From the IMG/VR virus record IMGVR_UViG_3300043021_000113: a stretch of 64,000 bases of DNA; one strand, 5' to 3'. Each line of letters begins with the position of its first letter. Within the stretch, counting starts at the first letter, position 1. The notes below the pieces were generated by a model, which was given only the letters and a program-made list of their open reading frames with translations, was not told the origin of the DNA and made no database searches. The translations under genes and the position numbers were made by a program. Shown here one piece after another: positions 758 through 45,736 of the stretch. Origin of the DNA: a virus. Its lineage: Duplodnaviria; Caudoviricetes.

Positions 758-1741
758 ATGAATGATGATTTACTAAATGGTGTTGAAGATCAACAACAAA
801 TAGAGGATCAGTATTACGATCCTATGGAAGATTTTGATTCTTATTTGAAAGAATCGGGAAATTCTCATGAAATACAAGATCCCAACACAAATTCAAATGT
901 TGATGATTTGCTAGATTCTGATTCTAAGAATATATCTTACAATGAAGATCTAGTAAATGAAGTTTTAAAGTCAAAAGGTTTTGATCCAAACGCGATTAGA
1001 ATTGAAGATGAAGAAACAGGAGAAGAAACAACTGTCAAATTTGCTGATTTACCAATAGAAGAACAAAGGGAAATTCTAGGCTATGAAAACGACAATTCTC
1101 CTTATTATTCGGACGATGAGATAAGCGCTATTGATTATTTAAGAAAAAATAACATGTCGCTTGCTGATTTAGTCGAATATGTAAAGGAAGAAACAATCCG
1201 TGAAATGCAAAATCAATCTGAAAATCAAATTTTTTCTGTAGATGATGCAAGCGATGATGAGTTGTTTATATACGATTATATGGAAAAATACGAAGACGAT
1301 TATTCCGAACAAGAATTGTTGGATATATTAGAAAGAGCAAAAGCTGATGAGCAATTGTTCAATCGTCAAGTTGCGAAACTTCGTGAAAATTACAAACAAA
1401 GAGAAATCGAACAAAATAATTACAAGCAACAACAAGAAGCCGAAGCAACAAAACAAAGAGAAGAGCAATATTTCAATTCAGTTAGAGAATTTGCTTCTCA
1501 AGTAAACGAAATGCACGGTACAGTTGAACTTGACAACAAAGACAAAAACGAGATTCTCGATTACATGTTCAAAAAGAACATGGCTGGAAAATCAGGATTT
1601 GAAAAAGATTTTGAAGATCCACGCAATAAATATATGGCGGCATGGTATTTTAAACATGGTGACGAAGCTTTCCAAAGCCTACATAAATATTACAGAAGCG
1701 AAATAGCAAAACTTCAAAGACAGTTGAAATTAAGAAAATAA
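758..1741 (+). CDS. Acidic helical protein upstream of MCP (putative scaffolding/head-assembly protein)
   Basis: 327 aa, D/E-rich with a coiled-coil segment; position immediately before the MCP as in crAss-like capsid modules. Confidence 0.6.
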   Translation: MNDDLLNGVEDQQQIEDQYYDPMEDFDSYLKESGNSHEIQDPNTNSNVDDLLDSDSKNISYNEDLVNEVLKSKGFDPNAIRIEDEETGEETTVKFADLPIEEQREILGYENDNSPYYSDDEISAIDYLRKNNMSLADLVEYVKEETIREMQNQSENQIFSVDDASDDELFIYDYMEKYEDDYSEQELLDILERAKADEQLFNRQVAKLRENYKQREIEQNNYKQQQEAEATKQREEQYFNSVREFASQVNEMHGTVELDNKDKNEILDYMFKKNMAGKSGFEKDFEDPRNKYMAAWYFKHGDEAFQSLHKYYRSEIAKLQRQLKLRK

Positions 1742-1820
1742 CTCACACTCACAAATACTAATACCACTCAACAATTAATCTAAAACTTGATAAAACAAGT
1801 TTAAAATTTAATTTGAATTT

Positions 1821-2369
1821 ATGTTAATTGCTAATTTCACGACAGAAAAAGCAAACATGTCCGCTACGAGAACGTATGAAGATTTTTCAACATTCTTGGG
1901 TGTTCGCCCAGAACGTATCGGTCTTGCTGCTTCTCTGTACAAAGACCTTACTGCATCAGCATTAACTGAGCAGCTAATGAATGTTTATTACAACAAAAAA
2001 GAGGGAACGAAATTTCAGCCTATTAATTCTTTAATGTTCGAATGGGAAATTGACACTTCTTATATTGAAAGAATAAAATTTACTGAAGTTCCAGAAAAAA
2101 TCGCAGGGCAAGAGTACCTATGCCACTTTGAAAAACGCTATTATGAAAGAATGGATACGTTCATTATTGAGTATAGCCGCCAAACAATGATTGTGCTTTC
2201 TGTTCCTACTAGATGTTCGGATGGTTCTTGGGAATATCATTGCCAATTGATCTCTTCTGATTATCACCAAGAGCTTGATACTAAGTATACACAGCCAGGA
2301 TGCGATACTCGTTGGATGTCTAACTACCACCCAGAACTTTCTAAAGAAGGTTACACGAAGTTCCAGAGT
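1821..2369 (+). CDS. Major capsid protein exon 1; join(1821..2369,3668..3949,4215..4764,5033..5061) = 469 aa
   Basis: crAss-like MCP N-terminus (TRTYEDF..FLG..P); exon ends GYTKFQS at U2369, which pairs with intron G2381 in P1. Confidence 0.85.
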
Positions 2370-3667
2370 AAAGAAATATTGCTCCTTGTAGCCTAAAGGC
2401 TACCCGAAAAAGCTATTAAATTGCTGGGAAACACGCATGATTGAGCGTGCAATCAGCAGCAAAGATTGGGATTGTGCAAGAGTTTTTACTAAGCACCCAA
2501 TAATGTTCAACGACTAGGGCGGGAGCCCGTACATATTAATTTATGGAAAAAGTAGCTAACTTTAAATTCATTGTATATCAAACAATGAATATTGTTAATG
2601 GTAAAATTTATATAGGCGTTCATAAAACAATTAATCCAGATATATTCGATGGTTACATTGGAAATGGAATTATTGTTACTTGCCCGTCATCTTATAATAA
2701 ACCAAAAACAGCGCTGCAATATGCAGTTAATAAATATGGAACCAAAAATTTTAAAAGATCAACTTTAAAAATTTTTAATACTCCTGAAGAAGCTTATGAA
2801 TTAGAAAGTCAATTAGTAACTCAAGAATTCATAAATCGACCTGACACATACAATATGAAAATTGGTGGAACAGGTGGTTGTTCTTATTATGTAAAAGTTT
2901 ATCAGTTCGAAGAATCTGGCAAATTAATTAAAGAATGGCCAAGTATTTCTGATGCTGCAAATTTTATGAGAGTTACAGATTCATCAATTAGACGAGCTTT
3001 TGAAACCAAGGGTTCTTGTAAAGGTTATTTTTGGAGTCTTAATGACAAGATAAAACCAGAAGAACACATAATGTATAAAGGTCAGTATTGTTATCAATAT
3101 GATAAAAACGGCAAGCTTGTAGATGCTTTTGAAAGTATACATAAAGCCGCTAATATCACAGGAATTCATAAATCTGTAATACAACGAGCCGTAAAAGCTG
3201 GATATAAAGTTAAAGATTATTATTTCGATATTAAGCTTCATGAAAATTATCAAGGCCAAAAAAAAATATCACTTAAAAAGAAAAGTATTTTTATATACAA
3301 TCTTCAAGGTGAATATTTAACAGAGTTAAAAAATGCTGATGAAATCTGTAAGTATTTTAATATTAAAAGCACTTGGCCAATAACTTCTTCAATAAGATGC
3401 AAGAGACCTTATAAAGACTGGCAGATTTCTTTAGAAAAAGTTGATAAATTACTTCCTATATTTAGTAAAAGAAATATTAGCAAGCCAATCTTGCAATATG
3501 ACAACAAGGGAGTATTTATTAGAGAATTTAAAAGCACTACTGAAGCTGTTAATCTTTATGGTACTGGAGTTCAAAAAGTTTTAAAAGGTCAACAAAAAGA
3601 GACAAAAGGTTACATATTTAAATACAAAGAAGTTAATGATATAGTCTGAAAATCATTATGATTTTTG
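2370..3667 (+). mobile_element. Group I intron 1 in MCP (1298 nt, IA2-like) carrying a homing endonuclease
   Basis: P AATTGCTGGGAA (~2419), Q AATCAGCAGC (2451), R GTTCAACGACTA (~2505), S GATATAGTCT (~3638); P1 GAGU/GCUC with U.G; terminal G3667; splicing gives in-frame FQS|NLERHRNYI. Confidence 0.9.
2543..3649 (+). CDS. Intron-encoded GIY-YIG homing endonuclease with ~4 NUMOD1-type repeats
   Basis: IVYQTMNIVNGKIYIGVH, AYELE..LV, YNMKIGG; repeats VYQF..GKLIKEWPSISDAA, CYQYDKNGKLVDAFESIHKAA, IFIYNLQGEYL, ILQYDNKGVFIREFKS. Confidence 0.9.
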   Translation: MEKVANFKFIVYQTMNIVNGKIYIGVHKTINPDIFDGYIGNGIIVTCPSSYNKPKTALQYAVNKYGTKNFKRSTLKIFNTPEEAYELESQLVTQEFINRPDTYNMKIGGTGGCSYYVKVYQFEESGKLIKEWPSISDAANFMRVTDSSIRRAFETKGSCKGYFWSLNDKIKPEEHIMYKGQYCYQYDKNGKLVDAFESIHKAANITGIHKSVIQRAVKAGYKVKDYYFDIKLHENYQGQKKISLKKKSIFIYNLQGEYLTELKNADEICKYFNIKSTWPITSSIRCKRPYKDWQISLEKVDKLLPIFSKRNISKPILQYDNKGVFIREFKSTTEAVNLYGTGVQKVLKGQQKETKGYIFKYKEVNDIV

Positions 3668-3949
3668 AATTTAGAACGTCATCGAAATTACATTTCCAAA
3701 CATCGTGCAGATGCTAGTCGTTCTGCTCTTTATGGTGCAATGGAAGACACTTTCGTTTCTATTTCTAAGAAAGACGGAACAGGTAATGATAAACAAGCAA
3801 TCTTTAGATTCCCACAACAAGAGAAATTAGTTCTTGATACATTCATGCAGGCACGCAATAATTCATTATTATTTGGTAAATGCAATTTTGACAAGAACGG
3901 AAAATGTATGGTACACGACCCAGAAGATGGTCAACCAATTCCAATGGGT
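3668..3949 (+). CDS. Major capsid protein exon 2
   Basis: NLERHRNYI...GQPIPMG; begins after omega-G3667 and ends at U3949. Confidence 0.85.
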
Positions 3950-4214
3950 AAATTTTTCATTGCCCACCTCAGCTGTAAAGCTGTTGCTTAAATCTGGTGA
4001 ATTGCTGGAAGGCCTTCATAAATTCGGTTAATCAGCAGCCAAGCCATTTAGGAATAAATGGAAGGTTCAACGCATAGGTTATACGATCCAGAACGGATCA
4101 TGAAAACCCACGAGTGCCAGACCCTTTAATTTAAAGGTGATGATATATGCTAAACTTACAGGATGACAAACTGTAAGATGTATAAGATAAAAAGCTTATA
4201 CGATAATATAATTG
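3950..4214 (+). ncRNA. Group I intron 2 in MCP (265 nt, ORF-less)
   Basis: P1 UGGGU/GCCCA (U3949.G3962); P10 GAUGGAA/UUUCAUU; P AATTGCTGGAA; Q AATCAGCAGCC; P7 GCAUA(4072)/UAUGC(4146); terminal G4214; splice gives PMG|DGIISQVERF. Confidence 0.9.
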
Positions 4215-4764
4215 GATGGAATAATTTCTCAAGTTGAAAGATTCGCTAATCAAACGGTTTATTCTAAACTAACAACTGATATTTTCGATCGTTTAATGGA
4301 TCAGATGTCAGAGAAGGCAGAGAAGATGTTTGGGAATAAATTCATTTTTGTGGTCAACAAGACCCTTTGGTATCAAATCCAGAGTACTTTACGCGAATAT
4401 TTGAGAGATTGGCAGACAGTAGGAACATTCTTATTCTCTCAAAAAGCAGGTGGTGACGTTGAAGTTGGCACCAAATATGATACATATTCATTCGCTGGTA
4501 ATACAATAACATTTATGGTTGATAAAGCACTTTCTATTGAATATCCTACTAAAGGTTATGGATTGTGCTTGGATTTATCAGCTGATGCAACAACTGGAAG
4601 ACCTGCAATCTCTATGATGACTCTAAAAGGCCAAGAGTTCATAACTGCATTCCAAAAAGGAATCGGTGGAAAATCTGGTAAAGAATCAGGAGAAGTGTCT
4701 AGCTGGTCTGAAGCTTCAAGATGGACTAACCTAGGATGGTCAGGCGTATTGGTTGCGTGTCCGT
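4215..4764 (+). CDS. Major capsid protein exon 3
   Basis: DGIISQVERFAN...GWSGVLVACP plus one base (U4764). Confidence 0.85.
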
Positions 4765-5032
4765 AAAATAAATGCGGCTATAAATAACAATATTTATAGA
4801 AAACTCGGTGAAAACGGGGAAAATCTGGAGACAGACAATCCCGTCGAAAGCGCTGGAAGTGCAAAAGTACAGCGAATCGCTAACGACTAATAGGTGAGCA
4901 GCACAAGCAATAATCCTAACACGAGTGCCGAGCAACTTTATTAAAAGTTGATGATATAGTCTGAACTGTAGAAATAATCTAAAATGAAACTACAGAAGTT
5001 AAGAATAAATAATCTTAACGATAACAAAATTG
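4765..5032 (+). ncRNA. Group I intron 3 in MCP (268 nt, ORF-less)
   Basis: P1 CCGU/GCGG (U4764.G4774); P3 CUCGGU/GCCGAG; P4 ACGGG/CCCGU; R TAACGACTA; S GATGATATAGTCT; terminal G5032; splice gives ACP-Y(T|AT)-RSHIIREA*. Confidence 0.88.
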
Positions 5033-5061
5033 ATCGCAGCCACATTATACGTGAAGCTTAA
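5033..5061 (+). CDS. Major capsid protein exon 4 (29 nt, C-terminus YRSHIIREA*)
   Basis: Restores a crAss-MCP-like C-terminal PYRS motif; TAA at 5059-5061, followed by a hairpin. Confidence 0.8.
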
Positions 5062-5087
5062 TATTGAGATATAATAAAAATTTATAT

Positions 5088-5122
5088 GGCAGAGTAACTT
5101 TGAAATTACTCTGCCTTAATTT
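5088..5122 (+). terminator. Hairpin / weak terminator after MCP
   Basis: GGCAGAGTAA-N8-TTACTCTGCC perfect 10-bp stem, short T-rich tail. Confidence 0.6.
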
Positions 5123-5127
5123 GGACA

Positions 5128-6060
5128 ATGACAATGAATATTGATGATAAAATAATTATAAGGTCAGTGTTTAAGATTACTAAAGCATCTTTGACACCAT
5201 GTAAAATTCCTGGAACTAATAATTATGATCCATGTGTTCGAAAAGTTGACAAGAACAATAACATGATTCTTTCTAGAGAAGACAAAGATTCAGGAAAAAC
5301 TTTTATTAGTGAAACGGAACTTATAGAAATATATGATGGCAAAGTTTTTGACCTTTCAATTGAAGAAGATGCTAACAAATGGAATGCTATTAAATACCAC
5401 AAATGCATTGCTAAAGATCGTGACGAGCGCGACGAAGAGGGCAATTTAATTATTGATGGTAACCAATATAAATACGGCACCGCTAATTGGTACATTGAAG
5501 TTCCCGGTCGTGAGACTAGTAACAAAAATAAATCAAGAAGGCTTAAAATTGAAGCTCAGAATTACATTATAAATGACAGTCCACATGATCGCTTACAAAA
5601 AGCCAAAGTTCTTGGAAAACCAACTAGACATGCCCACGATTCAGACATTGAAGATTTTTTGATGTCTGAAGCAGAGAAAGACCCTAAAAAAATAATTAAT
5701 CTTTACACATCAGGAGATATGGCTTTAAGGCTATTGTTAATTGAACTTAAAGACAAGCACATTATCAAGTTTATTGATAAAATGTGGATGTATGGTGATA
5801 TTATTTTAGGGACAAATGATGAATCAGTAATAAGTTACATGAAACAACCAGCAAATAAACGTTCTGTTGATTTAATGAAACGTGAAGCGTTTCCTGAGTA
5901 TTTCATGCAAAAAGAAATAATGAAGGCAGAAATGGAAAGAAGAGGTGTTAAACCGAAGATTGAATCTGAATCTGAATCTAAGGTTGAACCTGAACCTGAG
6001 CCTGAAAATGAAACTGTAGAAATTACAGTTGAAAAACCAAAAACTAAACCTAAAAAATAA
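5128..6060 (+). CDS. Conserved crAss-like protein downstream of MCP
   Basis: 310 aa; position in capsid module; low-complexity ES/EP C-terminal tail. Confidence 0.6.
   Translation: MTMNIDDKIIIRSVFKITKASLTPCKIPGTNNYDPCVRKVDKNNNMILSREDKDSGKTFISETELIEIYDGKVFDLSIEEDANKWNAIKYHKCIAKDRDERDEEGNLIIDGNQYKYGTANWYIEVPGRETSNKNKSRRLKIEAQNYIINDSPHDRLQKAKVLGKPTRHAHDSDIEDFLMSEAEKDPKKIINLYTSGDMALRLLLIELKDKHIIKFIDKMWMYGDIILGTNDESVISYMKQPANKRSVDLMKREAFPEYFMQKEIMKAEMERRGVKPKIESESESKVEPEPEPENETVEITVEKPKTKPKK
5962..6006 (+). repeat. Hexamer tandem repeats (GAATCT)3 and (GAACCT)-like encoding ESESES/EPEPEP
   Basis: Seen directly in sequence. Confidence 0.7.
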
Positions 6061-36016: not shown

Positions 36017-39000
36017 ATGATTTGCGAAGGATTAAACCCTTTTATGGCTTTACGTTTAGATAAGTTCGTAAAAGAAAATAATTTACAAGACAAACCAAGT
36101 AGAGAGATTTTCCAATCTCTCTCTGGTTTTATAAAAACACAATTTGGTTATGACGTAGATTTAAGCAACGATTTTTCGGAGCTTAACAGTCTAGTTGGAA
36201 ATATAATGAATTTGTCTGAATTAATAGAAACAGAAGATAAAACAGACGAAGAAGACGATTTCGTAATAACTGATGAAAAATTAAAAGATGAAGGAATAGA
36301 AGGTGACGCTATAGAAGGCACAAAAAATGAAGATTCCGAAGAATTAAACAAAAAGAAAACTCTTATTATTAAACCAGCACGCGTAGTGACAGTGTCAATA
36401 AATGATGATATAGAAACGCCACAAGATATTTTAAGAGTTTATTTTGGCGATAATACGACTCAGTATAATATTTTTAAAAATGGTTTTATAAGAGATATTA
36501 TCCAGCGTTCAATAATTAATTTTAAAACTGGAAACGAAGGTGTGATAAAGTCAAGTGATGACATACAAAGCAACATTGAACGTTATTATGGAGAAAATAT
36601 AAAAATACTTACTGATACTTTAGGGATAACTTATAGTGAAAGAAGAGATCTTATCCCTTATTTATTAGGAAACACAGATCTTGCCAATTCTTCGAATTAC
36701 GAAGTTAGAGGAGCTTATATTAAAGTAAAATATTTTAATAAGCTTATTTCTTCCATTTATAGGGATTATCTCCCAATTTCGGAAAAAAACGGTAATTATG
36801 AGCTTTTAAGAAAACATAAACAAAAAAACAATTATTCTGATTCTTTGGTAAATTTGTTTGATGAAGTCCCAAAAATTGTTAATTCAGTAATTAATAGTAT
36901 AAACATAATTGATCGTAACGGAAAGTTAATTGATACAAAATACATGAATACCGTTACCGCTTCAATGACAATGACTAATATTAAGGAAGCGGACATTTTA
37001 AAAACAAATTCAAGAGAAGATATAGAAGAAACAATGCGAGAATCAATGGTTGCTATATTAACAAGTGACCATTTAAGAGGTAAATTTGTAAGCGATCTTG
37101 ACAATATAGTTACACTTTACAATTATTTTTTTAAGCTTGACAATGACACTATAGATCTTAAATATAAAAACCCAGAAGTTACCTCTCTATTACAAATTAA
37201 ACTTAGAGATTATCAAGGTTCAAATATTCAAGACAACATAATTCATAACGCATTTAATGCTTTAGTTAACAAATCAGTTAGTCAATCATACGTTAGCTTA
37301 GAAAAAAACATTGAAGGATTATATGACCGAATAGAAATAAAAGCGAGAATAGTTGATAATTACATGTTTCAATTGAAAAAATCACTTGACGGTTACATTT
37401 TCAATGCTAATTTTGACAATGAATATCAAGCTAAAGTTGGAGATTATAATTTTTCGGTTGATGGTCCAAATGGTAATATAAGAGTAAATAGTGGACACGT
37501 TACACCATCAAAAGCCATGTTTTCTAAAGCAGAATTCCCAACTGGTGAATGGTGGAATAATCCAGAAGCGTTACCATCTAATCAACGCATGGTTTATGAA
37601 ATGTTAAAAGTTGTTAAAGATCTAACACAAATCGACACTATAGGTTATGAAGGAGAAATTTTCAAAAACCTTAGAATAACTGATCTTAGCGAATTTTTAT
37701 ATTCGGCTTTTGAAGTGGCAAGCGCAACATCTATGTATACCAAAAAGCAAAAGGCTTTAAATGACATGGACGAAATAAACAAAAATAAAATTCTAAACAA
37801 CGAAGCTGTAAGAAAAGTTACTTCTGGTTATAAATACGTTCCATTTTCTAAAGGATCTTTGGATAAAAAATACATGCCGTTTATTTCTAAGTTATCTGAC
37901 GCTCAAATGATAGCAAACGGAGAACAATTCAAATCTATTTCTAGAGATTTAGCGGGAAATGGACAACCGAATTCTTCTATTATTAATTTAATAGGTGATA
38001 TTCAAAATGCCATTAAAGATGCATCAAAAACTAATAATAGAAATTTAATAGCAGAAAATCAACAACTCATAAAATCTGTTACTTATAGAGCAGATGTTAT
38101 GGATGAAAACGGAAAAGTAAAATCTCACAAGAAATTTAACGCTGGAGAAATTACTTATCAAGCTATATTTCATGATTTTATAATGAATCTTAAAAATGGC
38201 TTCGTTGAAATGGAGCCTACCGTTTATGCTGATAAATTCGGTCAAGCAATGTTAAGAATTGACATAAATTCTGACTTAAGAGTTAATGGTATAAATAGAG
38301 GTTCAATTAAAAAGCTTTTAGCTGATCCACACGCAATGTCTCAAATATATTTTGAAACAATGCAAGCTCAATATAAAGCAATTTATGATAGGCTAATAAA
38401 TGACTATTCAATAATAATGGAGCGTCCAGTTAATAGCTTACAGGCTATCGATCAATTTTTAGCTGGACTTGATGTAAGCCTTTATGATTACGTAAAGAAT
38501 AAAAACATAAATATTGATATTCAATCTTTATTCCATTTTCAAGGGAGACCTGGAAATCAAAGCTTAAATAGACTTATTCTTCAAAAAATGGTTGAATATG
38601 GAGTTATTGGTGAAAGAGACAATAAAGCGTTTTTATCTAAAATGAAAAGAGAAGATAAAAAGTTTGCTTATATGTTCGACAAATACGCTCCAAAAATAAC
38701 CGTTGTTGATGAAGTAGGAGAAATTACAGCTGAGTTTAACGCTATAGTTGACAATTATTTTGAAGCTGTTTTTGGAGAAAAAAGCAAGAAAAAACTTACT
38801 GAAGAATATTTGAACGATTGGATAAATGAAGCTGGACAATTAGTACCTTATAAATTAAAAGCAGGGAATAATAAAGCTCTTGATAGAGAAATAAATTATT
38901 ATGATATATTCAAAGAAGGAACAACTGTTGAGCTTAACCCTTTATTTAGAGCTGTTCAAGATACACATAGGCTAGTAATAAATAACTTTAATCAATTAAT

Positions 39001-42000
39001 AAATGGAGGAGCTTTTGCTCATGCAATAAAAACCGATTTTATAAAAGAAGAAAAAGGTTTTAAAAATGACCATAACGCTTCTCAATATATAAAAACAAAT
39101 GATGAATTAGAAGATTACATAAATAATGCTTCTTCTGATTCTATAGAGTCAGCACATGTGTCAGCCATGTTTAAACGTATGGTTAACATGCAAGCAAAAA
39201 TACATACGTTCACGCAAGGATTAATAACTGGTATTCCAAAACACGCAAAAATGATGGTTATGAAAGACTTTAGCAAGAAAGTTTGGAATGCAGCAGGAGT
39301 TATTAAAAATCTAGACACAGACGATGGTTCTGGTTATTCTCCAGGTGTTGCTAATGTTCTTTATCAATATAGCTTAGGAGATTTTAGAAATGACACCTCA
39401 AGCTTAAAATTAATTAGACACGCAACAGATGCAGACACACAAGTTGCAGAACTTGACAAATACGCCGTACAAATAGCAACTAATCAAGCTTGCAGACAAT
39501 CGGAAGCTTCAAAAAGGCCATTTTCTGAACTTCAAAATGCGATGTTATCTGCAATTAAATTTAATGAAGTTTTCCCAGAAGGAACAACAAATTTAAATAT
39601 TCTTGATTATTTATACGAAGGAGACGGAAGACATTTAAAAGTTGAAAACTTACAAGAAGCAATACTTAATTATACAGATTTTGCAGAAGACAACGAAGCA
39701 GAAAATAACCCAGAAGTTGAAAAATTACTACCTAATGTTTTAAGAAATAGAAACATAGCTTACAGTAGAAATGGAGAAAATGTTTATAACCATTTAATGG
39801 GTATTACTTATTTACAAGAAACCGGAGGTTATGCTTTATTATATAAAGCAACCGATATTGCAGGAAAAGATGTTGACACTTTTGAATCAAACACTGTTCA
39901 ATTACCCAATGGTTATTTTGTTAAAGTAATAAATGGTGACACATTGCTTGATTGGTTCAATGCTTTTGGTGGTATTTACTCAGTAGATGCTAAAACAAAA
40001 GAATTTAACGATAACAGCAATTATGCTTTAGCTGATCTTATAAATAACGTTATAATTAAAAAGTCAAATTTTAATATTGCAGCAATTCAAGCTGTTTCTC
40101 CTTGGGAAACAATGCCTAATAAAAACTTAGGAATAATTAATCAAGCCAATTATTATCAACCTTTAAAACATGCTCTAATTTATCAAGTTAACAATACAAC
40201 TGGAATGAAAAATGGAGCAAAGAATATTAATAACAATTGGCTTAAAGGTAACAATCGTTGGTTTGTAACTGATACTTCTTATTTTGGAGTACAAGGAAAT
40301 TTTGACCATAAATTCGATGATGAGGATGAAGCAAGAAGTACTGAATCTTCGCAGATGATCCTTGCAGCTCAAATTAACGGTTATAAATTTAACAATGTAG
40401 ATAAGCTTTACAAAGCACTTAGTAAAGTAATACAATATACAGCTAAAAATGAAATTGAAGCATCAATGGATGGAAAATCAGCTGAATTTTTAGCTAGAAA
40501 AGTAACTGAACTTATCGGTGAAAAAGAAAGAATAGGACTTGCTCAATCTTGGAATGATAAAGTAATTCGTGAGTGGGAAGCTGAAGGCTTAGAAGTTAAT
40601 TATAAAAATTTAGCAAGTAAACAAGCTTTCAGCGATCCAAATTTCTTTAATGTTATTGTTTCTTCTTTATCTTCTGCTATTAATAGAGGAGCAATTAGAA
40701 GAGACATGTCCGGTATAGCAGCAATTCTTGCTCCTGGTGAAGATTTAATAACTGTTGTTGACACAATAGATGATAACGGAAAACCGAGAATTTCTATGTC
40801 AAATGATATGTTAGCAACACTTAGAGCTAAAATAAACAAAGATCCAGAATATAAAGATAACATAGCCAGAGATCTTGCTTATCAAGACGCTTTACAAGCT
40901 TTTCGAGAAGGACGAAATCCTTTATCTGAAAAAACACCAGTTCCAAGAATAACTGCTTATGGTATTTATCAAGCAAATATAATGCTTGAAGATGGAAGAG
41001 CTATTTCAAAGCAATTTGAAGTAACAGATCCTAACATGTATTATAATATACAAAGAGGAAATTTAAATGCTGCTTTTAGTGATATATTAGCAATTGATGA
41101 TAAAGTAGCAAGTGTTGAGTATTTCAAATTATCAAGAACACCTAGAAATTTATTAAGTCGTCATTGGGTGTTTAACGCTGAAAATGGCGCTACTTATTGC
41201 GATTTAGATTTAAGCAGTGCTTATGATTTATTATTAAAACGTAAAGAATTAGGCAATAAAAACTCACCAGAGGATGAACAAAGAATAAAAAGTGAAATTG
41301 CCAGTCTTGAACAAGAACAACAAAGACAACTTGACGAAATAGAAAAAACAGGAATTTTAACTCTTCCTGATGGAACACAACTTAGAGGAACTCTTGAACG
41401 TAACGCAGGAGAAATTATAATGCCTGCTTATATGGCTACCAAATATGGCTTAAAAGAAGGAATGAGCCTAAATGACGTTAACAGAGAATTTTTCAAAAAT
41501 AGATATGAAAAATTCAATAATAAAGTTGCAAGAGGTGCAGAATATGCGTTTTTATCTGGAGAAGGTAAACATGTAAACGTTGTTGAAAGTTTGGATAATG
41601 TAAATTACAAAAAAGCAACTAAACTTGAAAATGTAAATGGTTACTTTGTAAATAAGAATGGATCTAGACTTTACGAAGCAATAAACAACAATCAAGAAAT
41701 GTTCATTGTTGATGGTCAAGTATTTTTAGTTTCAGATGTAAGAGATGCTTACAAATTTTTTAATAATAACAATTTTGCAGAAGTAAGAGCAGTTAATGAC
41801 ACACCAGCTACTCAATCTTACATGCAAACTTACGCTAAGCGTTCTTATTATTATTTTAAAAATAATCGTAGAAATTATCTTGAATTATTGTTTAATGATT
41901 ATTTAGATAAGGTCGAAGCCTCTTTTAATCAATCATTAAAAGTAATGGGTGTTCGTATTCCATGTCAAGCTTTGCAGTCAATAATGGCTATGAAAGTTGT

Positions 42001-42073
42001 TGGGTTTATTGAAGAACATTCAAACAGAGCTTATGTTCCAATTAAAAAGAATTGGATCGATGGAAGTGACTTT
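36017..42073 (+). CDS. Virion RNA polymerase exon 1; join(36017..42073,42365..45736) = 3142 aa
   Basis: GVRIPCQALQS..MKVVGF..NWIDGSDF motifs of the crAss two-barrel RNAP leading up to the catalytic loop. Confidence 0.85.
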
Positions 42074-42364
42074 TGTATAAATAAAAAATAATGGAAGTCG
42101 TAAAATCGCGTGAACTGCGGGAAACTCCTTAGAGCTTTTTTATACTAACTTATGGTAGAAATATACATAAGGGCTGAACTAATCACTCAGAGATAGTAAA
42201 AAGTAAAAAAGATTGGACAATCCGCAACCAAGCGTCCAGTAATGGATGAAGGCTCACAGACTATCCTTTTATGGAGTAGGGGCGAAAGCTTCGAAGTGCG
42301 CGACACTAATTAAAAATTAGTGATGATATAGTCGAGCTTTACGTGAAAACGTAGAGGGTAACTG
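42074..42364 (+). ncRNA. Group I intron 4 (291 nt, ORF-less) inside the RNAP catalytic motif
   Basis: P1 GACUUU/GAAGUC (U42073.G42094); P GAACTGCGGGAAA; Q CAATCCGCAACC; P7 C(A)GACUA/UAGUCG; terminal G42364; splice gives GSDF|DIDK. Confidence 0.9.
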
Positions 42365-45300
42365 GATATTGACAAAATCTACTTAACAGGCTTCAATGCC
42401 TCTAAAAATGGCATAATGGATGTTCACACATCTTGGTTTGATTATCGCTTTATGGACCAATCGTTCCAATTGCCATTTGCCGATGGAAAAGAAAAGAAAG
42501 TTGCTGAAAGACCAATTGCTCATAATTTTTCAGAACAGCAATTTTTAAATTTCCAAAGATATTTAGAAATGAACGAAGTTTTAACTCCTGAAGAATATCA
42601 AGACTTCGTCGATATAATGAACTTTATTTCTGAATATGAAATAATACCTAATGAATTAAAAGCTTTTGAAGGAGACATTAACGATTACTTCATGGATTCT
42701 TCAACAGAAGGAGAAAAGCTAACAGAAGCAACCAAAAATATTGTTTCTTATTATTTACACGATATTTCAAATTCTGTGGTAAATTCTATGGCTTCGGATA
42801 CACCGGTAACATCTGATACAACAGCAGCTGTTGCTTCTAAATCTGAAAAAGCTAGAGATGCTAAGCTTTTTTCAATGGATAATTACATGACGCTTCCAGC
42901 CATGAAACAAGCTAATTCTTATGGTAAAGATTGCATCGGTATTTCTGCTGTAGGCTTAAAATGTTTTAACACTTTAAGCTTTATGTATTCAAAAAAAATG
43001 TCTAATTTAGAAAAAGAATTAATACAAAAAGGAATAACTCCAGATGCAAGAGTTGAAGATTTAGACCAAGAATTAGTAAATCAAATTTGGCACGATTTAA
43101 ATATTAAAAAAGTAAATTTAGGTAAAAGAGATTATAACAAGTTAACACGACTTAAAGATAGAGCAGGAGTTTTAACTAATGAAGCAATAAATAAAGAATT
43201 AAAAAACTTCTTTACTGGCTTAGAAATAAACGGAGATGATATAGTATCAATTAATAATGTAAATTATAGATTAAACATTGTTGATGGTTACAAATATCTT
43301 TCCCCTTTATATGAAAACGCAAAAAGCATTGATCTTAGCAAGAGAAATGATGATTTATCGGCAATTGTTGAAGAAGCAGCTTTATTTATTGAACTTTTAA
43401 ATCAAACGGGAGTTAATCCAGCAGAATTAGCTTTAAGTAAAATTGAAGAAGAAACGGGAGTTTCTAACTTTATAAGAACTCAAGCAATAAATATCGCTGA
43501 TTATACAGGAGATCAAAATTTATTAATTGAAAAATACAAGTTATCTTCTGCAATTATTAATGCAAATTTAGTTGCTAACGTTAACTTTACAAATACTCCA
43601 ATATTAAATAATATTTACGGTCAATTCGTAAAAAATAATAATATAATTGATGTTAGATTAACAGCTGATAAAAGCTTAGATATGTCCGAGCTTGTGACAA
43701 TTTCAACAGATAATGCAAAAGAGCTTATCCTTGAAAAAATCAATGCAAGTCCTGCACTAATAGGTGTTTATTCTTATTTAACTTCTATTGGGTTACCTCT
43801 TGATGTTATAGCTGATTATATGATATCAAAAGAAGTTAACACAATTGCTAGTTTAGCAGAAAGCAACGTTTTTACTGGAGACAACATGAACGTTGATAAA
43901 GCAATTGCTAAAATAACTGGTATTCCTTATTATAGAAATTATCTTAAAGGTTGGGAAGCAATAAAACTTCTTCGTGGACCAAAGAAAAGTAATTCTAAAA
44001 CAAGCATGTTATATCGTGCTTTAGAAGCTTACAAAAAACATAGATCAACAAGTATTCAAGATGCAAAAATAGCTACAAGCATTCAAAATAATTTAGGAGA
44101 TTATGAAAAAGTAAAGCTTGGACAGTTATTCAGTGAATTTAACAAATTAGGTCCTAATGCTTTAAAAGCTCTTGCTGATGTAATAAAAGATGATTACCCA
44201 AAATTGGATAGCAAAATAAAACATGGAATGAAGCGTTATGAGAACGCAATTCGTGAATCTGTAAGCTATAAAGAAGATCTAGACATGGATTTTATAAATG
44301 CTTTTGCTGAGTTATATTTAGGAGCTGATGAATTAAAGCTTTTTGGATCAAGACTTAATATTAATCAAGGAATGAAAACAACTGCATTTGAGCTTATAAG
44401 TGGTTATAATCGATACAATAATACAGTTGCAAGATTTGCTAAGAAAAGAGATTTAGATTTAATGGAACTTTCATCAAAAGTAAATTTAGATGGAAGCCAA
44501 TTTGACATAAGCAATATTTATACCGGTAAACAAACAAAAGAACTTACGGATTTATACGATGCTTTAAAAATTCATCATAACATAGTTGAAGCTGAAATAA
44601 TGTCTCCTAGCTTTTCTTCAATGCATCTTGCCAAAGATTCCGCGGTAAATATTCTTAGGAATTCTTCAGCTAAATTTAAAGCTCTTGAACTAATGTATAA
44701 AACATTTGGTCAATATGCAAACGAAGATAACTTCAAGGATCTTATGGATTTTTTAAATAAAGACATAACGAATCTTTATCTTTCAAATCTTGATCTTGAT
44801 TATAACGTTAAAAAAGACTCTGAGATTTACAAAGACGAGGACGATAAAAAAATAAAAACAGAACGTGATTCTGTAATTTCCATTAAAAGCAAAAATGGAG
44901 TTGTAAACTTTAAAATATTAATGGAAAAAAGACTTCAAGATTTAAAGAAATTGTATCCTGAAAATCAATTTTTATCTAACATTGGTTACGATTCAATAGC
45001 TGATAAATTAACCAGGGCTGAATATACAATAATGAAGCCTAATAACTTAAACATGAATAGCATTTTAAGTGATACGGACATTTACAGATATTCTCAAATG
45101 GTAAATGGCTTCAAAGAGCTTACAAGTATAAAATCAGATTTTATCGATGGAATGAATATTTCTGATGAATTCATGCTTTATAATTTAATAATAAATAATA
45201 ATGGCTACAGTAAATCTTCTTTTTCAAGATTTTTTGATGAAGCGATAGATTCTGATTCTGAAAATATAATTTCTGATTATATGCGATTTGTTGGTAATTT

Positions 45301-45736
45301 GGATTATTCTTCGCATTTATCAAATAAAGGAGAAAGTGAATTTGAATGGGCGAATGAATCAAATTATAAAACTTATGTTTCAGATGATAAAGAAATAGTT
45401 TATAATTCAACAATAAATAGTACTTATTTAAATTTACTTCATGCTCAAAAAGTAGGAAAAGAATTTAAGCTTGATTTTAAATCTAATGGAGATTTTGTCA
45501 AGAAATGGAATAATACTTCAAAATCGTTTGATTTTTACCGATGGATAGGAACAGGAAATAATGGTGCTTATGAAAAAATAAAAAACCTTGGTTCTCTTAA
45601 AAATGCTCCTTCTTTTTTAACGGTTATTAAAAACGATTCAAACAACGTTATTAATAATTCAAGGAGTAGATCAATAGCTAAAGAGCTTCAAAGGGATATT
45701 GACAATAACAAAATAACATTAATTTTTAATTGTTAA
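42365..45736 (+). CDS. Virion RNA polymerase exon 2
   Basis: Frame open from GAT 42365 (DIDKIYLTGF...), in frame with ORF 42416; GKDCIGISA and STDNAKELIL motifs. Confidence 0.85.
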   Translation, partial: DIDKIYLTGFNASKNGIMDVHTSWFDYRFMDQSFQLPFADGKEKKVAERPIAHNFSEQQFLNFQRYLEMNEVLTPEEYQDFVDIMNFISEYEIIPNELKAFEGDINDYFMDSSTEGEKLTEATKNIVSYYLHDISNSVVNSMASDTPVTSDTTAAVASKSEKARDAKLFSMDNYMTLPAMKQANSYGKDCIGISAVGLKCFNTLSFMYSKKMSNLEKELIQKGITPDARVEDLDQELVNQIWHDLNIKKVNLGKRDYNKLTRLKDRAGVLTNEAINKELKNFFTGLEINGDDIVSINNVNYRLNIVDGYKYLSPLYENAKSIDLSKRNDDLSAIVEEAALFIELLNQTGVNPAELALSKIEEETGVSNFIRTQAINIADYTGDQNLLIEKYKLSSAIINANLVANVNFTNTPILNNIYGQFVKNNNIIDVRLTADKSLDMSELVTISTDNAKELILEKINASPALIGVYSYLTSIGLPLDVIADYMISKEVNTIASLAESNVFTGDNMNVDKAIAKITGIPYYRNYLKGWEAIKLLRGPKKSNSKTSMLYRALEAYKKHRSTSIQDAKIATSIQNNLGDYEKVKLGQLFSEFNKLGPNALKALADVIKDDYPKLDSKIKHGMKRYENAIRESVSYKEDLDMDFINAFAELYLGADELKLFGSRLNINQGMKTTAFELISGYNRYNNTVARFAKKRDLDLMELSSKVNLDGSQFDISNIYTGKQTKELTDLYDALKIHHNIVEAEIMSPSFSSMHLAKDSAVNILRNSSAKFKALELMYKTFGQYANEDNFKDLMDFLNKDITNLYLSNLDLDYNVKKDSEIYKDEDDKKIKTERDSVISIKSKNGVVNFKILMEKRLQDLKKLYPENQFLSNIGYDSIADKLTRAEYTIMKPNNLNMNSILSDTDIYRYSQMVNGFKELTSIKSDFIDGMNISDEFMLYNLIINNNGYSKSSFSRFFDEAIDSDSENIISDYMRFVGNLDYSSHLSNKGESEFEWANESNYKTYVSDDKEIVYNSTINSTYLNLLHAQKVGKEFKLDFKSNGDFVKKWNNTSKSFDFYRWIGTGNNGAYEKIKNLGSLKNAPSFLTVIKNDSNNVINNSRSRSIAKELQRDIDNNKITLIFNC

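Follow-up and report, generated by a model that had tools for sequence, protein, structure and literature searches.

A crAss-like phage major capsid protein gene interrupted by three group I introns and ending in a 29-nt exon

The window analysed here is a 64,000-nucleotide (nt) stretch of the virus record IMGVR_UViG_3300043021_000113, which totals 111.9 kb with an estimated completeness of 63%. Between positions 1821 and 5061, its plus strand carries three open reading frame (ORF) pieces with capsid-like products (1821-2396, 3665-3991 and 4212-4766) as well as a 368-amino-acid (aa) ORF. We consider it very probable that this region is a single major capsid protein (MCP) gene of a crAss-like gut phage, into which three self-splicing group I introns are inserted (Table 1).

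Table 1. Features of the capsid locus in window coordinates.
Feature	Position	Strand	Description
MCP exon 1	1821..2369	+	549 nt, residues 1-183; ORF from ATG at 1821; terminal U2369 pairs with G2381; 42-62% identity to N-termini of intron-less relatives
Group I intron 1	2370..3667	+	1298 nt, contains homing endonuclease gene; ends at G3667; RF00028 45.2 bits, E = 1.5e-9, 5' part only
Intron-encoded homing endonuclease ORF	2543..3649	+	368 aa; GIY-YIG-like N-terminus, NUMOD1, I-HmuI NUMOD-like
MCP exon 2	3668..3949	+	282 nt, residues 184-277, phase 0/0; Pfam Crass_capsid positions 200-283; contiguous with exon 1 in L007 and 25 relatives
Group I intron 2	3950..4214	+	265 nt, no ORF; ends at G4214; RF00028 56.8 bits, E = 5e-13; P1-P9.1 located
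MCP exon 3	4215..4764	+	550 nt, residues 278-460 and first base of codon 461; Pfam Crass_capsid positions 284-467; ungapped against relatives at both junctions
Alternative P1-like helix	4742..4779	+	4742-4750 pairs with 4771-4779; guide G4774 shared with the productive P1, here opposite U4747; the cryptic 5' splice site lies 17 nt before the productive one
Group I intron 3	4765..5032	+	268 nt, no ORF; ends at G5032; RF00028 56.2 bits, E = 8e-13; P1-P9.1 located
MCP exon 4	5033..5061	+	29 nt: last two bases of Tyr461, 8 codons and TAA; encodes (Y)RSHIIREA
Terminator-like hairpin	5088..5115	+	10-bp stem followed by T-rich tail, 27 nt past the exon 4 stop

Exons, introns and the joined reading frame

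The initial annotation had joined four exons of 549, 282, 550 and 29 nt into a continuous 469-aa MCP, and these exons match the sequence exactly at the positions listed in Table 1. A scripted join gave a 1410-nt coding sequence specifying 469 aa and a stop codon, with no internal stop under the standard code, and it bears out the assignment of exon 2 to phase 0/0. The joined protein ends in ...LVACPYRSHIIREA, its last nine residues being YRSHIIREA, and the junction between exons 3 and 4 splits a tyrosine codon (T/AT). As had been proposed, reading into any one of the unspliced introns leads to an in-frame stop (2394-2396, 3989-3991 and 4764-4766 for introns 1, 2 and 3, respectively), and it follows from this gene structure that a full-length capsid protein requires three splicing events. 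The hairpin at 5088-5115 is the sole plus-strand terminator-like site within 1500-5400; it lies after exon 4 and not after exon 3, as expected if the transcript includes exon 4.

Alignment to intron-less capsid proteins had been set beforehand as the test of the joined protein, and revealed no gap at any junction and no frameshift. A core-less mini-intron hidden in the exons was also looked for, and none was detected, as 25 intron-less relatives show no insertion in the exons of the window. A longer-protein search returned 24 relatives, 21 of which are full-length intron-less genes of ~470 aa sharing 42-62% identity with the joined protein, some on contigs of 155-182 kb. The capsid gene is uninterrupted in two GenBank phage records from human faeces. 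The 473-aa product of the uninterrupted gene of MT835470.1 (L001) shares 45.6% identity with the joined protein, with three small gaps of which none is at a junction. In the alignment of relatives, all three junctions (marked by slashes) fall inside conserved ungapped blocks, GYTKYQS/NxExHR, RPIPMG/DGIISQ and FxP/YRS, and the C-termini of the relatives read PYRSFI..E., with an invariant Pro-Tyr straddling the site of intron 3. The MT835470.1 protein scores 52.2 bits on the Pfam family Crass_capsid (PF23898), to which most full-length relatives carry a precomputed match, and the matches of exons 2 and 3 to this profile abut at their junction. Since genes downstream match the muzzle protein (E = 5.7e-36) and tail ring protein 1 (E = 1e-5) of crAss phages, the phage is crAss-like. 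No close relative was found by searching viral contigs with exon 1, and neither the MT835470.1 protein nor a 21-sequence profile had a match in PDB sequence searches; an AlphaFold model of the relative P0005 (21 sequences) had a mean predicted local distance difference test (pLDDT) score of 51, too poor for a fold search. In two relatives, L002 (MT835492.1, 1658-3079) and L011 (4501-5226), capsid read-through requires TGA to be read as tryptophan, a case of stop-codon recoding.

Metagenomic contigs carrying other alleles of the gene bear directly on the proposed structure. The European Nucleotide Archive (ENA) contig L009 (~78% protein identity) lacks exactly 4765-5032, so that its exons 3 and 4 are contiguous and its capsid gene ends in LVACPYRSHILREA followed by a stop codon. 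At the level of sequence comparison, this allele settles the 29-nt exon, and it backs the claim that the last exon had been missed by ORF callers. An intron homologous to intron 2 occupies the same site in L009 and in L007, a contig from the Joint Genome Institute (JGI). We also considered that the inserts could be an assembly artefact, that is, chimeric joins in the contig; nothing specific favours this explanation, although the genome is a metagenome-derived virus record. Contig L010 was assembled from an independent run and matches the window at 100% identity from 4175 to 5157. This span begins within intron 2 and takes in exon 3, intron 3 and exon 4, thereby ruling out an artefact there, and L007 and L009, which come from other projects, have intron 2 at the same site. 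An identical contig is present in run SRR11794475. The chance that the inserts arose in assembly is thus negligible.

The three interruptions have the anatomy of group I introns. A search with the Rfam model RF00028 (gathering score, 50 bits) of a 3.6-kb stretch gave matches at 2360-2615, 3940-4177 and 4738-4981, those of introns 2 and 3 being above the gathering score. The initial annotation had described a 5' U paired to G and a terminal G at every junction, and all of these were located: the splice-site wobble pairs of P1 are U2369.G2381, U3949.G3962 and U4764.G4774, and the terminal omega-G lies directly before the 3' exon in each case (G3667, G4214 and G5032). The core P3-P8, with the P3/P7 pseudoknot and a J8/7-P7 element (GAUAUAGUC-like), consists of standard pairs, and all of its helices were located by pairing. 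P1 of intron 1 is formed by 2366-2371/2379-2384, its helices P1 to P7.1 lie within 2366-2528, and P3', P7' and P9 lie at 2553-2557, 3642-3646 and 3649-3665, respectively, while P1 of intron 3 consists of only 4 bp (CCGU/GCGG). P7 of intron 2 is retained via compensatory changes, GCAUA/UAUGC compared to GACUA/UAGUC in the other two introns. Centroid folds of both ORF-less introns recovered P2, P4-P6, P7.1, P8 and P9, together with the long-range P3 in intron 3; P3 of intron 2 was seen only in the minimum-free-energy fold. The fold z-scores were -2.0 for intron 2 and -4.3 for intron 3. Stems fitting P7.1 in the introns, plus P7.2 in intron 2, are present and may correspond to the extra helices between P7 and P3' that are a trait of the T4-like subgroup IA. 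Taken together, the RF00028 matches, the splice-site anatomy and the intron-less relatives uphold the identification of all three inserts as group I introns. Introns 2 and 3 are similar beyond shuffled controls (z = 6.8), as are the core of intron 1 and intron 2 (z = 5.4), and by sequence the capsid introns look related to one another, as in the gene of phage Twort (see below).

Several results weigh against this interpretation. Intron 1 is under the Rfam gathering score (45.2 vs 50 bits), because its 3' half is 1.1 kb away, the 1107-nt ORF parting the 5' strand of P8 from its 3' strand and P7'. The GIY-YIG match (PF01541) of this ORF, at 20.7 bits, is just under the cut-off of 22.6 bits, and endonuclease activity is thus not assured. 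Scored singly, exons of the window are below the PF23898 cut-off (17.6 and 14.9 vs 27 bits), and exon 1 has no match. Furthermore, the alternative P1-like helix of intron 3 has a local free energy of -12.0 kcal/mol, compared to -8.7 kcal/mol for the best fold keeping the productive 4-bp P1. Finally, spliced junction sequence was not found in the one metagenome collection scanned: the exact exon 2-exon 3 junction 29-mer had 0 matches in metagenome contigs. A degenerate exon 3-exon 4 pattern hit two loci in these contigs, one being a chance match and the other only a 10-residue C-terminal match, and we rejected both as evidence of splicing; the latter locus may correspond to a short terminal exon of a distantly related phage.

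Some of these observations would also be compatible with a gene that is broken or expressed in pieces, in which the inserts would be non-splicing mobile DNA or decayed introns and the capsid would be made as separate fragments or from another capsid gene. Besides the low Rfam score of intron 1, an in-frame TTG is found just before exons 2 and 3 (3665 and 4212). However, exon 4 lacks a start codon and its nine residues could not be produced separately, and all three inserts have complete ribozyme cores with correct splice-site anatomy. In addition, exon differences with L007 are nearly all synonymous, indicating purifying selection on the joined frame, and inspection of the window's ORFs revealed no second capsid gene. 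We thus hold a broken or fragmented gene to be highly improbable.

The introns were easily overlooked at larger scale. RF00028 gave no match on the whole 64-kb window in either gathering or E-value mode, a consequence of the speed filters, although four introns located there score 45-67 bits in short stretches, and contig-scale cmscan searches will undercount the introns of phages that are as AT-rich as the present one. The fourth of these introns (42030-42364; 67.2 bits, E = 1.2e-16) lies between the ORFs 36017-42091 and 42416-45736 and does not significantly resemble any of the three capsid introns in primary sequence. An Rfam search of the phage's own genome likewise overlooked this 67-bit intron. 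A fifth group I signal (32.7 bits) was found in that genome outside the window, at 1501-1687 of contig L006 (region ~660-1800), where it comes after an ORF of 270 aa that contains Cys-rich, HNH-like motifs and sits between the ORF pieces 3-659 and 1810-2031.

Intron 1 and the distribution of introns among relatives

Pfam analyses revealed that the product of the 368-aa ORF of intron 1 matches NUMOD1 (59.6 bits) and I-HmuI_NUMOD-like (37.8 bits), both above the cut-offs. IVY...YIG motifs are visible in the ORF, which also matches PHROG 314, annotated as 'homing endonuclease' (E = 8e-31). The ORF starts between P7.1 and P3', occupies the P8 loop and ends in a stop codon (3647-3649) that directly abuts the 3' strand of P7 (3642-3646).

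Contig L007 provides an empty site for this intron: exactly 2370-3667 is absent, and nucleotide identity with L007 is 95% for exon 1 and 92% for exon 2 together with the start of intron 2. Over 896 aligned bases, including 65 nt upstream of the start codon, L007 and the window differ by 57 mismatches, 32 of which lie within 100 nt on either side of the empty site (16% divergence compared to 3.6% elsewhere, binomial P = 3e-8). The protein changes amount to 3 in 277 codons. Such a cluster of mismatches is the footprint that would be expected from homing with co-conversion of the flanks, or from the reverse event. At the insertion site itself, the serine codon (2367-2369) is AGT in the gene with the intron, where it supplies the splice-site U, and TCA in L007 (612-614), a synonymous switch between the two serine codon families that may also affect recognition by the endonuclease. 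Intron 1 is, on this indirect evidence, a mobile element. Its predicted GIY-YIG/NUMOD endonuclease would cut the intron-less capsid genes of co-infecting relatives, and the intron would be copied into the cut gene together with ~100 nt of each flanking exon.

Fragmentary relatives carry introns at other positions of the capsid gene, after approximately residues 177, 189, 269, 409, 427 and 452, and NUMOD-type endonuclease genes are present in many of them. In a relative from pig gut, Rfam group I matches were obtained at both interruptions, and the last exon has ~17 codons, too short for tblastn. Apparent very short terminal capsid exons (~14-17 codons) were also observed behind endonuclease-bearing introns at other sites, at 5224-6540 of L011 and 518-547 of L016. 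Lost C-termini may be a general annotation problem in this capsid family.

Splicing and putative capsid variants

We infer the following course and timing of splicing. A pre-mRNA of ~3.24 kb would begin upstream of 1821 and end at the hairpin (5088-5115), and each intron would adopt the P1-P9 ribozyme fold. Free guanosine would attack after the U of the U.G pair of P1 (2369, 3949 and 4764), and the freed exon end would attack after the terminal G (3667, 4214 and 5032), the product being a 1410-nt mRNA for the 469-aa capsid protein. All three read-through stops (2394, 3989 and 4764) precede P3, and such early stops would keep ribosomes out of the ribozyme cores. That ribosome exclusion matters for folding is established for the introns of phage T4.

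Intron 3 contains a second possible register for P1. The Rfam alignment of this intron takes the register of U4747, 17 nt upstream of U4764, which corresponds to the alternative P1-like helix, and in the alternative fold the true 5' splice site would be sequestered in a small inner hairpin (4753-4766). Splicing at U4747 would result in a frame-shifted 7-residue tail, ...GWSGVSQPHYT, ahead of a stop codon. We rejected U4747 as the productive 5' splice site since L009 encodes ...ILVACPYRSHILREA contiguously and protein homology also places the site at 4764. The alternative P1 may compete without harm, may form transiently during folding or may provide a cryptic site that is in fact used.

These features raise the question of whether splicing could be a regulatory device. 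The initial annotation had suggested a GTP/Mg-sensitive control point and variant capsid proteins from partial splicing or skipping of exon 2; functional variants could also be generated by use of U4747 or retention of intron 3, or capsid production could be coupled to GTP/Mg2+. In support of variants, exon 2 is 282 nt long with phase 0/0, so that an exon 1-exon 3 product would be in frame, and by inspection ~4 pairs are possible between the guide of intron 1 and the start of exon 3. The U4747 helix is locally more stable than the productive P1, and failure to splice intron 3 would shorten the protein by only 9 residues. As for precedent, transcripts without one exon have been described for the Twort gene, which has three similar group I introns, as summarised in PMC3073962.

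However, the exon 2 block, with several invariant residues, is kept in 24 of the 24 relatives, which makes a product without exon 2 unlikely to be a working capsid subunit, and, with this region strongly conserved in every relative, the initial proposals of regulation and exon skipping find no support. The invariant Pro-Tyr at the site of intron 3 is likewise kept in relatives. Moreover, close relatives lack intron 1 or intron 3, and neither is therefore needed for capsid production, while the sites of introns differ widely from one relative to another, a pattern that selfish insertions would be expected to produce. Functional capsid variants are consequently unlikely, and we give a regulatory role of splicing, GTP/Mg2+ coupling included, a low probability. 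Slightly less probable still is the specific proposal that intron 3 switches the capsid protein between alternative C-termini, yielding ...PYRSHIIREA when spliced, the loss of nine residues when unspliced, in which case translation would stop at a TAA that begins with the splice-site U, and the frame-shifted 7-residue tail upon cryptic splicing. If this were true and the ratio of products were put to use, for instance to time assembly or to occupy special positions in the capsid, the isoforms of a capsid protein would be set by a group I intron. We retain the interpretation of a single MCP gene whose three group I introns would be removed to give one full-length protein.

Comparison with known systems

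Multi-intron capsid genes in crAss-like phages are already known, having been reported in 2021, and the mechanism is conventional; new here are the base-level anatomy of the locus and population evidence of mobility. Gene callers yield three capsid fragments and drop the last nine residues of the protein, and whole-contig Rfam scans miss the introns. Unless splice sites are mapped, the capsid genes of this abundant gut-phage lineage will be mis-annotated and mis-clustered. With a 95%-identical empty-site strain and a ~100-nt co-conversion footprint, the locus also provides, for gut phages that have not been cultured, a clean case of intron homing in nature.

The td group I intron of phage T4, in which additional helices separate P7 from P3, codes for the GIY-YIG endonuclease I-TevI with C-terminal DNA-binding modules; it has an early in-frame stop, and flanking exon sequence is co-converted during homing. 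Intron 1 resembles it by its extra helices between P7 and P3, its GIY-YIG-type ORF, its early stop and the footprint in its flanks. The td ORF is located in P6a. In contrast, the ORF of intron 1 lies in the P8 loop, overlapping P3', P8 and P7', and its GIY-YIG match is just below the Pfam cut-off.

Staphylococcus phage Twort likewise has three sequence-related group I introns in one protein gene (Landthaler and Shub 1999, as summarised in PMC3073962). Host, phage lineage and gene differ from those considered here. According to the same summary, exon-skipped transcripts were observed for Twort; in the capsid gene, skipping would be formally possible because the middle exon is in frame. The Jug jumbo gut phages, which are associated with Bacteroides, have ~18 group I introns per genome, short (~206 nt) and mostly ORF-less, in essential genes, and about half of the introns predicted in three of their genomes have metatranscriptome-supported splicing (PMC12880540). 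They belong to a different clade and carry their introns in different genes (terL, nrdD and DNA polymerase) from the present phage.

The closest parallel in phage kind, gene and element type is found in the Delta and Zeta crAss-like phages, in which Yutin et al. 2021 (PMC7886860) reported group I introns in the MCP gene, the genes for MCP, PolB and primase being typical targets. One Zeta genome has its MCP broken into five fragments, with intron-type endonuclease domains encoded in three of the intervening spacers (PMC7886860). The genome size implied by 111.9 kb at 63% completeness, with relatives on contigs of 155-182 kb, and the presence of at least five introns fit the description of the Zeta phages in PMC7886860. 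Whereas introns were found in that study via protein domains, with no base-level splice sites, the ribozymes are mapped here, ORF-less introns of 265-268 nt and a 29-nt exon are resolved and, unlike in that study, intron presence and absence is observed among near-identical strains.

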